A stretch of DNA of 14,375 bases from a virus (lineage: Duplodnaviria > Heunggongvirae > Uroviricota > Caudoviricetes): the IMG/VR virus record IMGVR_UViG_2690316131_000006. One strand, 5' to 3'. Both the position numbers and the translations under genes were made by a program. This document shows positions 6,227-7,087 of the stretch, in pieces (the first letter of the stretch is position 1; every line of letters starts with the position of its first letter). Under the pieces are notes generated by a model. That model was given only the letters and a program-made list of their open reading frames with translations, was not told where the DNA came from and searched no databases.

Positions 6227-6867
6227 GTGAATTAGCTATCAGGCTTCAATTGTCGCTGGCATTCGCATCAAAGGAGAATGAGATGACCACTTTTACAAAA
6301 GAGCAGTTAATCAGTCATGTTAGTGAAAATGTAAAGGCGATGAAATTTGCAGTAAAACAGACAGTATTCAAAAATTCTCTCGAGGCAATTGAGTTGGATT
6401 TAGCACTGGCCCTTGTTGCTCAGGCTTCGCTGGAAGCAGAGCCCGTGCTTTATATGAATCGATTTACCGGAAAGACATTCTCACTGGAAGAGCAACCCGG
6501 TGCTGATAAGGAACCGGAAATATACGTGCCGCTATATGCTGCCCCGCCAGACAGCGCCGCCATGCTTCAGGCTGGAAACTTTCGGGAAAATAAGGGTTCG
6601 TCAACCAATAATTTTCGGGAAATCTCGGAAACGTCAACCAACTATCCGGTAACTCCGGATGGTTGGATAAGCTGTAGTGAGCGAATGCCGGATGATGGTC
6701 AGCACGTAATTATTTTATGTGATGGCGCATTCGTTCTTTATGCGCAATATCGAGACGGTGAGTTTTTTGATGTAGTCCGTAATGGTGATGAATTTTTCGA
6801 AACACAGAGCCGCAATGTAACCGACTGGATGCCGCTACCAGAACCGCCGCAGGAGGTGCGCCAATGA
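6223..6867 (+). CDS. Phage protein with DUF551-like C-terminal domain; alternative start at 6283
   Basis: AGGAGG before GTG 6223 and AGGAG before ATG 6283; C-terminal ...WISCSERMPDDGQHV...WMPLPEPP matches my recollection of DUF551; contains a 33-bp in-frame tandem duplication. Confidence 0.6.
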   Translation: MSELAIRLQLSLAFASKENEMTTFTKEQLISHVSENVKAMKFAVKQTVFKNSLEAIELDLALALVAQASLEAEPVLYMNRFTGKTFSLEEQPGADKEPEIYVPLYAAPPDSAAMLQAGNFRENKGSSTNNFREISETSTNYPVTPDGWISCSERMPDDGQHVIILCDGAFVLYAQYRDGEFFDVVRNGDEFFETQSRNVTDWMPLPEPPQEVRQ

Positions 6868-6947
6868 TCTGGCCTGAAGCCTTTGCAATTACAGGCGTTG
6901 CTATAGCTATTGATTTTTTAGTATATGTTATTTGTCGGTGGGGGTAA
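6864..6947 (+). CDS. Small hydrophobic peptide, 27 aa (MIWPEAFAITGVAIAIDFLVYVICRWG), predicted membrane
   Basis: ATG overlaps the upstream stop (ATGA); AGGAGG 7 nt upstream; a single hydrophobic segment. Not in the ORF track. Confidence 0.4.
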   Translation: MIWPEAFAITGVAIAIDFLVYVICRWG

Positions 6948-6982
6948 AAACGTTCGCCGGGATTCACACCAAAGGAGGGAAT

Positions 6983-7087
6983 ATGTCGGATGATATTTCA
7001 CTGGCAATGGAAGGTGCTCTGGCTGTTATTGCTGTTGTGGGCGTTTACTGCCTGGTTGTGTTTTTGATGGATCGACTAGGGAACTGA
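6983..7087 (+). CDS. Small hydrophobic peptide, 34 aa (MSDDISLAMEGALAVIAVVGVYCLVVFLMDRLGN), predicted membrane
   Basis: AGGAGG 4 nt upstream of ATG; one transmembrane-like segment. Not in the ORF track. Confidence 0.45.
   Translation: MSDDISLAMEGALAVIAVVGVYCLVVFLMDRLGN

Follow-up and report, generated by a model that had tools for sequence, protein, structure and literature searches.

Two predicted single-pass membrane peptides encoded upstream of hok/sok in a lambdoid prophage of Escherichia coli

We analyzed a 14,375-nucleotide stretch of viral DNA (IMG/VR record IMGVR_UViG_2690316131_000006, hereafter the window), which is a lambdoid prophage of Escherichia coli related to Rac, Qin, and Shiga toxin (Stx) prophages. 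Two very small open reading frames (ORFs), which we call ORF1 (27 residues) and ORF2 (34 residues), lie between a DUF551 gene and the hok/sok locus. We consider it likely that both are genuine genes, that their products are tiny peptides crossing the inner membrane once, and that these peptides serve as accessory modulators and not as killers of the Hok type. The translation of ORF2, a hypothetical protein, has been reported before. ORF1 adds a new and widespread member to the membrane microproteins of phages and bacteria.

ORF1 occupies positions 6864-6947 of the plus strand (ATG at 6864, TAA at 6945-6947) and codes for MIWPEAFAITGVAIAIDFLVYVICRWG, a member of a family with the pattern MxWPEAF-helix-CRWG. 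An AGGAGG Shine-Dalgarno sequence (6851-6856, plus strand) sits 7 nt before the ATG, within the last codons of the DUF551 gene, and the ORF1 ATG shares an ATGA overlap with the TGA stop of that gene. ORF2 occupies positions 6983-7087 of the plus strand (ATG at 6983, TGA at 7085-7087), codes for MSDDISLAMEGALAVIAVVGVYCLVVFLMDRLGN, and is preceded by its own AGGAGG (6973-6978, plus strand) 4 nt before the ATG. The best 19-residue Kyte-Doolittle mean was 2.31 for ORF1 and 2.72 for ORF2; as a background, only 5% of the 76 ATG-initiated ORFs of 20-45 residues in the six frames of the window reach 2.0. Both peptides have the hydrophobic stretch of about 19 residues that is expected of a single-pass membrane peptide. 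The initial annotation of this locus described two hydrophobic peptides with AGGAGG ribosome-binding sites (RBSs) and one helix each, and the window sequence and hydropathy values bear this out. It also proposed that ORF1 is coupled to the DUF551-like gene (6223-6867), and the overlapping start and stop codons are indeed placed for translational coupling. Its description of both peptides as unannotated holds for ORF1, which is absent as an annotation from the records we inspected (RefSeq E. coli genomes and phages 933W, Stx2 II, ArgO145, Av-05, and SPN3UB), but not for ORF2, which carries the identifiers WP_001278450.1 and, in E. coli O157:H7 Sakai, ECs_5710.

We propose a model for how these peptides are made and how they might act. 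Ribosomes ending on the DUF551 gene would restart at the overlapping ATGA to produce ORF1, aided by the AGGAGG 7 nt upstream, and termination-reinitiation is the most likely route of ORF1 translation given this arrangement. The acidic N-terminal tail and the Arg that follows the helix in both peptides suggest that each probably inserts with its N-terminus in the periplasm and its C-terminus in the cytoplasm. Once inserted, the peptides would probably pack helix-to-helix, either by self-association or against a membrane protein of the host or phage. Such a mode of action would make them modulators or exclusion-type accessory factors; superinfection exclusion, also named in the initial annotation, is a candidate role. 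We do not favor a killing function because ORF2 is well translated in growing cells and because neither ORF shows type I-style repression at the RNA level. In evolutionary terms, ORF1 is probably one instance of a portable microgene, which in phages is retained at the 3' end of early genes of the Ea22/EaA/DUF551 type, and ORF2 is probably a later add-on cassette, with its own RBS and terminal hairpin, that was inserted between ORF1 and the hok promoter.

Translation and conservation of ORF2

The 34 residues of ORF2 are contained in the published sequence of XECs145 (Huecker et al. 2017, PMC5597208), which occupies the same position, between a DUF551 gene and mok/hok, in prophage Sp6 of E. coli O157:H7 Sakai. 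XECs145 was reported to be translated on the basis of ribosome profiling (RIBOseq), and its predicted location is the inner membrane, with a single predicted helix (PMC5597208). In uninduced Sakai cells grown in lysogeny broth (LB), it gave 79 reads per kilobase per million mapped reads (RPKM) in the transcriptome and 346 RPKM in the translatome, with a ribosomal coverage value (RCV) of 4.35 and a coverage of 0.99. The corresponding values in brain heart infusion were 121 RPKM, 150 RPKM, and an RCV of 1.14, and there was almost no translation under cold and osmotic stress (PMC5597208). Neighboring novel ORFs in the same Sakai prophage region had far lower translatome values (PMC5597208), which makes spontaneous prophage induction unlikely as the sole source of the signal. 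Ribosome profiling had been suggested in the initial annotation as a check on translation, and for ORF2 these published data provide a positive answer.

XECs145 was described as a 54-residue frame with an upstream start that overlaps ORF1, whereas the ORF2 considered here has 34 residues. The AGGAGG and ATG are conserved, and this supports the 34-residue form, which is the one called by the Prokaryotic Genome Annotation Pipeline (PGAP), over the 54-residue frame. Across 131 ORF2 loci, the RBS reads AGGAGG in 106 and GGGAGG in the other 25, and every locus keeps an ATG or GTG start. PGAP calls ORF2 a hypothetical protein (WP_001278450.1 and variants) in every genome that we inspected. An alignment of nine E. 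coli variants showed mostly synonymous third-position changes with the start codon kept, ATG being replaced by GTG in one lineage. The ratio of nonsynonymous to synonymous polymorphism (pN/pS), calculated from 13 distinct sequences of narrow host range, was 0.25 in frame versus 0.73 and 2.63 in the two other frames.

ORF2 homologs are confined to E. coli-type sequences in our searches. A word-indexed search with a 51-residue, upstream-extended frame and an exhaustive HMMER search with a natural ORF1-ORF2 fusion (P0008) gave the same picture; the latter covered 1.84 billion representatives and returned only E. coli-type variants and mutationally extended forms. A full-text literature search with the peptide sequences and the accession found no match in main texts. 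ORF2 is a lysogen-expressed orphan peptide and illustrates how very small cassettes spread by recombination between short repeats.

The ORF1 family

Members of the ORF1 family share the pattern M-x-W-P-E-A-F, a helix, and C-R-W-G, and most have 27 residues. BLAST revealed the first relatives in other contexts, and we collected the family by scanning IMG/VR with a degenerate DNA pattern. The scan yielded at least 55 peptide variants, and among the matches listed, 182 of 206 family hits are exactly 27 residues long. Some high-GC hits in this set (L085, L102, L112, L131, and L241) are possible chance matches. The L241 hit (7618-7655, minus strand), from a high-GC Pseudobdellovibrionaceae metagenome-assembled genome (MAG), belongs to a 65-residue ORF that starts with MTWPEAFAIVGVAF, the same as the N-terminus of the ORF1 family, and it may represent either a chance match or a distant relative of greater length. 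A stricter pattern applied to species-representative genomes matched only E. coli, Shigella, and two MAGs of doubtful relevance. Within E. coli, canonical ORF1 DNA matches 1744 of 5426 complete genomes (20-32%, depending on coverage); at least 80% of the query is covered in 1077 of the 5426, and these genomes carry up to 9 copies (median 2).

Besides Stx phages, carriers of ORF1 relatives include Salmonella phages, one P1-like phage-plasmid, and one virulent phage. In the Stx phage 933W, ORF1 follows L0139. In the P1-like phage-plasmid SJ46, the relative is MSWPEAFAIVGVAMAIAAIFIFWG, and its frame overlaps the stop codon of an unrelated gene. In the virulent phage Av-05, the relative occupies an annotated gap between two genes, and in Salmonella phage SPN3UB a 23-residue version, MNWPDAFLYVGIAWAFAYAITRI, lies 3' of the Eaa gene. 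The genes upstream of ORF1 differ widely and include those for DUF551 proteins ending in ...WMPLPEPPQEVxQ, proteins with the C-terminus ...MDYLKRNGLISVEDVLR (MDYLKRNGL-type), and proteins with the C-terminus ...AENDLKNIEQEVNR (AENDLKN-type). A dATP/dGTP pyrophosphohydrolase-domain protein and the SJ46 and Av-05 genes add to this variety. In all of these contexts, which comprise at least five unrelated upstream C-termini, the ORF1 start keeps its ATGA overlap and has a GGAGG 7-10 nt before it. The divergent Salmonella and P1-like versions retain the N-terminal motif, the hydrophobic stretch, and the ATGA overlap even though their DNA has diverged. The sequence 3' of ORF1 also varies: a hok leader, GC-rich terminator-like hairpins, the ORF2 cassette, or the next gene may follow. 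In an unbiased sample of 113 ORF1 loci, 18 were followed by ORF2 and hok, 23 by hok directly, and 72 (64%) by neither.

Despite this distribution, ORF1 appears in protein databases only as mutation-extended forms. Common gene callers apply a minimum gene length of about 90 nt. At 84 nt, ORF1 falls under this limit, which would explain why annotation has missed it. It exemplifies the small membrane proteins that are systematically lost to annotation, even though it is present in medically important Stx phages such as 933W. ORF1 is the same sort of sequence as the hydrophobic microproteins of 15-70 codons under purifying selection that catalogs of small ORFs (smORFs) such as Entero67K report in bulk (PMC11188072). 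It differs from the intergenic smORFs described there in having a 4-nt overlap with an annotated gene, and the examined part of the supplements on intergenic smORFs held no entry with the WPEAF motif (PMC11188072).

The reading frames of both ORFs are conserved across homologous regions, which the initial annotation had proposed as a check, and each shows purifying selection in its own frame. For ORF1, pN/pS was 0.41 in frame versus 0.72 and 1.84 off frame, in a sequence set that had been pre-filtered on the C-terminal amino-acid motif and in which the first seven codons are fixed by the search pattern. Indels preserve the frame, as in the 6-bp deletion found at two loci (L003 and L004), and give variants of 23-25 residues. 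Outside the N-terminus fixed by the pattern, the conserved residues are G11, A13, A15, A17, Y21, I23, C24, R25, W26, and G27. The small residues G11, A13, A15, and A17 form interleaved small-xxx-small motifs that are typical of helix packing.

These data can be set against the alternative that one or both ORFs are not genes at all. The conserved entity would then be a DNA or RNA element, such as a recombination linker at a mosaic boundary or an upstream or insulator region for hok, and the frames would be incidental. The ORF1 region does lie exactly at mosaic junctions, where GGGTAAAAACG serves as the junction. Its -1 frame is likewise mostly open, its variable sites are spread evenly over codon positions (16/16/19) without a third-position skew, and some copies have TAG in place of TGG at codon 3. 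However, pN/pS is lowest in the proposed frame of both ORFs, hydrophobic residues are replaced by hydrophobic residues, and the length of 27 codons is held in most of the listed hits. The retention of motif, hydrophobic stretch, and overlap in diverged Salmonella and P1-like DNA also argues for a coding function, as does the observation that 99% of ORF2 lies under ribosome footprints (PMC5597208). We judge a non-coding origin of the conservation to be improbable.

The pre-filtering of the ORF1 set, the even spread of its variable sites, its open -1 frame, and the TAG codon nevertheless weigh against our preferred reading of ORF1 and ORF2 as membrane-peptide genes, and several further points do so as well. 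In the copies with TAG at codon 3 (L008:1014-1097, which is Shigella phage POCJ13; L009:1014-1097; and L104), the remaining frame is intact and conserved, the POCJ13 type ending in ICRWG. These lineages have a common upstream module, which may reflect a single inactivating event spread by recombination. At codon 17 (6912-6914), within the central part of the helix, the window copy has Asp, and Ala is found at this position in almost all relatives. The Asp variant is common in the sampled loci (42 copies), and it may weaken membrane insertion or alter function. In the Sakai study, the only ribosome-profiling dataset that we found, the ORFs tested had at least 30 residues (PMC5597208), which is longer than ORF1. 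For ORF2, the selection data come from the small and narrow sequence set described above, and the XECs145 reads could be partly multi-mapped among the Sakai prophages. A consensus promoter scan found no plus-strand site that would account for ORF2 expression in lysogens, and the promoter given for XECs145 is a prediction (PMC5597208). Finally, the membrane topology, the packing partners, and any phenotype in our model are all predictions.

A more specific reading of the ORF1 family is possible but doubtful. Under this reading, the family performs a specific, conserved job. It would be retained, by translational coupling, as the final cistron after many different early genes, in Stx and lambdoid phages as well as in P1-like phage-plasmids, Salmonella phages, and virulent Vequintavirinae, and would be defined by M-x-W-P-E/D-A-F, a helix with small residues G11/A13/A15/A17, and C-R-W-G. 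If it is correct, the periplasm-facing WPEAF tail and the helix could bind a host inner-membrane protein and influence infection outcome, superinfection, or lysogen physiology, and ORF2 would be a lineage-specific partner peptide of ORF1. The strict N-terminal motif and the fixed place behind varied early genes make ORF1 a tractable target in the search for a new phage-host membrane interaction. Current understanding is not overturned by these results, which are of use for improving annotation and as a source of candidates for functional screening.

Relation to hok and to other small membrane proteins

The proximity of hok raises the alternative that ORF1 and ORF2 are membrane-damaging type I toxins like Hok. 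Their synthesis would then be lethal or growth-arresting, and control at the RNA level would normally restrain it. The initial annotation had suggested such a toxin role, or a holin-like one. The size and hydrophobicity of the peptides are within the range of Hok, Ldr, TisB, and Ibs, and ORF2 adjoins hok/sok in 112 of 117 loci. Weak antisense promoter-like sites over ORF1 and the ORF2 start, and a near-invariant 35-nt spacer before ORF2, are further points in favor of this alternative. However, these antisense sites occur at the level of shuffled sequence (3 found versus 2.3 expected). An Rfam search over 6864-7087 found no match, with sok detected only at 7164-7338, although an undescribed RNA would escape such a search. 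Neither peptide matched Hok/Gef (PF01848 and the NCBIfam Hok models) at E-values up to 1, whereas the neighboring mok/hok frame gave 2.3e-23, and no other toxin family was matched.

Expression and charge distribution also argue against a toxin. Type I toxins are typically subject to tight translational repression during normal growth. In contrast, the RBSs of both ORFs are strong and unoccluded, ORF1 is coupled to an ordinary gene, and ORF2 is strongly translated in exponentially growing LB lysogens (RPKM 346, RCV 4.35). The layout of charges is reversed, with an acidic N-terminal tail in place of the Lys-rich N-terminus of Hok. The link to hok is also weaker than the window suggests. ORF1 and ORF2 do sit just upstream of hok, as initially noted, but this association is positional only, and hok is not nearby in 64% of the unbiased ORF1 loci. 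We consider a Hok-like toxin function unlikely.

Searches of other families likewise gave no support for the toxin or holin-like roles. Pfam, NCBIfam, PHROG, PADLOC, and PDB sequence searches returned no meaningful match for either peptide, and no holin family was matched in Pfam or PHROG. Both ORFs belong to the early operon, where they precede the Q antiterminator gene, and lie outside the lysis cassette. In the related prophage of O103:H2 strain 12009, the annotated holin (class II) is about 6.5 kb farther downstream, beside a lysozyme gene. The defense and exclusion models of PADLOC-DB gave no significant match, the best being an unrelated Cmr5 model (E 0.023).

We compared the two peptides to well-described small membrane proteins. 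Hok/Gef proteins, encoded 250 bp downstream, are likewise small, hydrophobic, single-helix prophage peptides, and ORF2 adjoins hok in nearly all of its loci. ORF1 and ORF2 differ from them in having no sequence match, no mok-type leader frame, no sok-type antisense RNA recognized by Rfam, and no C-terminal periplasmic domain, in addition to the exposed RBSs, the acidic N-terminus, and the translation of ORF2 in healthy cells described above. The Pf3 coat protein and similar small membrane proteins adopt an N-out/C-in orientation and are inserted without a signal peptide. They resemble ORF1 and ORF2 in that a short acidic N-terminal tail precedes a single hydrophobic helix and a basic residue follows it. 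This layout suggests the same topology for ORF1 and ORF2, with insertion that is probably YidC-type or spontaneous. There is no sequence relationship, ORF1 and ORF2 are not virion proteins, and the topology is read from charge distribution alone.

E. coli has a set of small membrane proteins with regulatory roles (AcrZ, MgtS, MgrB, KdpF, and CydX, among others). Like phage moron or exclusion peptides, they are shorter than 50 residues, form one helix, and lack an enzymatic domain. ORF1 and ORF2 are like the AcrZ/MgtS type in size and in their single helix, and small-xxx-small motifs would suit binding to a larger membrane protein. Phage morons are expressed from the prophage in the lysogen, as is the case for ORF2. 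None of these proteins is homologous to ORF1 or ORF2.

The ORF2 cassette and its surroundings

ORF2 is part of a 175-bp cassette that is bounded by an 11-bp direct repeat and consists of the nearly invariant 35-nt spacer, ORF2, and a terminal palindrome. The left copy of the repeat, GGGTAAAAACG (6942-6952, plus strand), lies across the stop codon of ORF1 and forms the left boundary of the cassette. The right copy (7117-7127, plus strand) forms the junction with the hok leader and promoter region. These are the two matches to the repeat in the window, where none were expected by chance. In loci without ORF2 (933W, ABU 83972, and SCU-171), the ORF1 stop joins the hok leader at the repeat motif, which is present as a single copy, including one-base variants such as GGGATAAAAACG. 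The repeat pair, and the single copy in loci that lack ORF2, suggest that the cassette is gained and lost by short-homology recombination. ORF1 precedes ORF2 in all 131 loci. The hok promoter motif lies 3' of ORF2 in 112 of 117 loci, and an IbrB-like gene or an IS481 element is found downstream in the loci without hok. These exceptions indicate that ORF2 can persist without hok.

The perfect 22-bp palindrome at the end of the cassette, CGATATGGGAATTCCCATATCG (7096-7117, neither strand assigned), has 11-nt arms with 100% complementarity and is found, with small variants, in 112 of 117 ORF2 loci. The predicted hairpin has a folding energy of -18.4 kcal/mol (z -3.8). We ruled out a standard intrinsic terminator because no T-run follows. 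The palindrome possibly stabilizes RNA 3' ends, insulates the hok promoter that follows, or binds a protein. It contains an EcoRI site, and a second EcoRI site is located at 7086-7091.

The close spacing of ORF1 and ORF2 also allows the alternative that they form one gene, read by a programmed -1 frameshift at G_GGG_TAA (6940-6947) to give a two-helix protein of 74 residues. Relative to ORF1, ORF2 does occupy the -1 frame, which is open across the spacer (ORF 6932-7087). A stop codon in the A-site beside a slippery G run could favor slippage, and one extra G in the run of five produces natural 74-residue fusions (P0008 and P0009). However, the fused form occurs in none of 131 loci, several lineages have an interrupted G run (GGTGAGGG, GGTGTGGG, and GGTGGGAG), and one lineage has four As in place of five, which alters the frame relation. 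ORF2 retains its own AGGAGG and ATG or GTG start, and ORF1 is mostly found without ORF2. The fused example on a metagenome contig differs at a second homopolymer run too, which makes a sequencing error plausible. We therefore rejected a programmed frameshift, which we regard as extremely improbable, because neither the slippery run nor the frame relation is conserved.

Rare 74-residue fusions do occur in sequence collections (L249:1501-1725, on the metagenome contig, and P0008, P0009, and P0005), and they are probably homopolymer sequencing errors or rare variants. AlphaFold2 modeled a natural fusion of ORF1 and ORF2 as two helices only, at residues 3-34 and 41-72, with a predicted local distance difference test (pLDDT) score of 71.

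The two ORFs are embedded in the early rightward operon of the prophage, a run of plus-strand genes from about 2650 to about 10190. The operon contains cro-like and replication genes and DUF1627, DUF977, and DUF551 genes, followed by hok/sok, DUF968, RusA, and the Q antiterminator gene. This places ORF1 and ORF2 between the replication genes and the Q gene. The region from 6700 to 7600 is 100% identical to many O103, O157, O145, and O121 genomes. The gene that overlaps the ORF1 start (6223-6867, plus strand) is of the EaA/Ea22 type, matches Pfam PF04448 with an E-value of 6.7e-21, and is named a DUF551 domain-containing protein by PGAP.

On the other side, the hok/sok type I toxin-antitoxin locus (7164-7488, plus strand) is a neighbor of the two peptides and not part of them. 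It comprises the sok region (7164-7338; Rfam RF01794, 114 bits), mok (7276-7488), and hok (7333-7488; Pfam HOK_GEF, E 2.3e-23; hokD in PGAP). Directly 3' of the right repeat, the sequence TTGCGG-N16-TAGAAT (7130-7157) resembles a hok promoter by eye, with a -35 element too weak for the promoter scan to call. The motif AGTTAAGTAGAAT at this candidate promoter is kept in all hok-linked loci.

Other small genes are found elsewhere in the window. Rfam identified DicF RNA (323-374, minus strand), STnc100 (13542-13734, plus strand), and the anti-GcvB RNA AgvB (13736-13797, minus strand). A further short hydrophobic frame (13424-13537, plus strand), with 37 residues from its ATG, lies 3' of a TerB-like gene. 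The related O103:H2 12009 prophage has a DUF3927 family protein (168-nt gene, about 55 residues) annotated after its TerB gene, and the frame is probably the equivalent of this protein.

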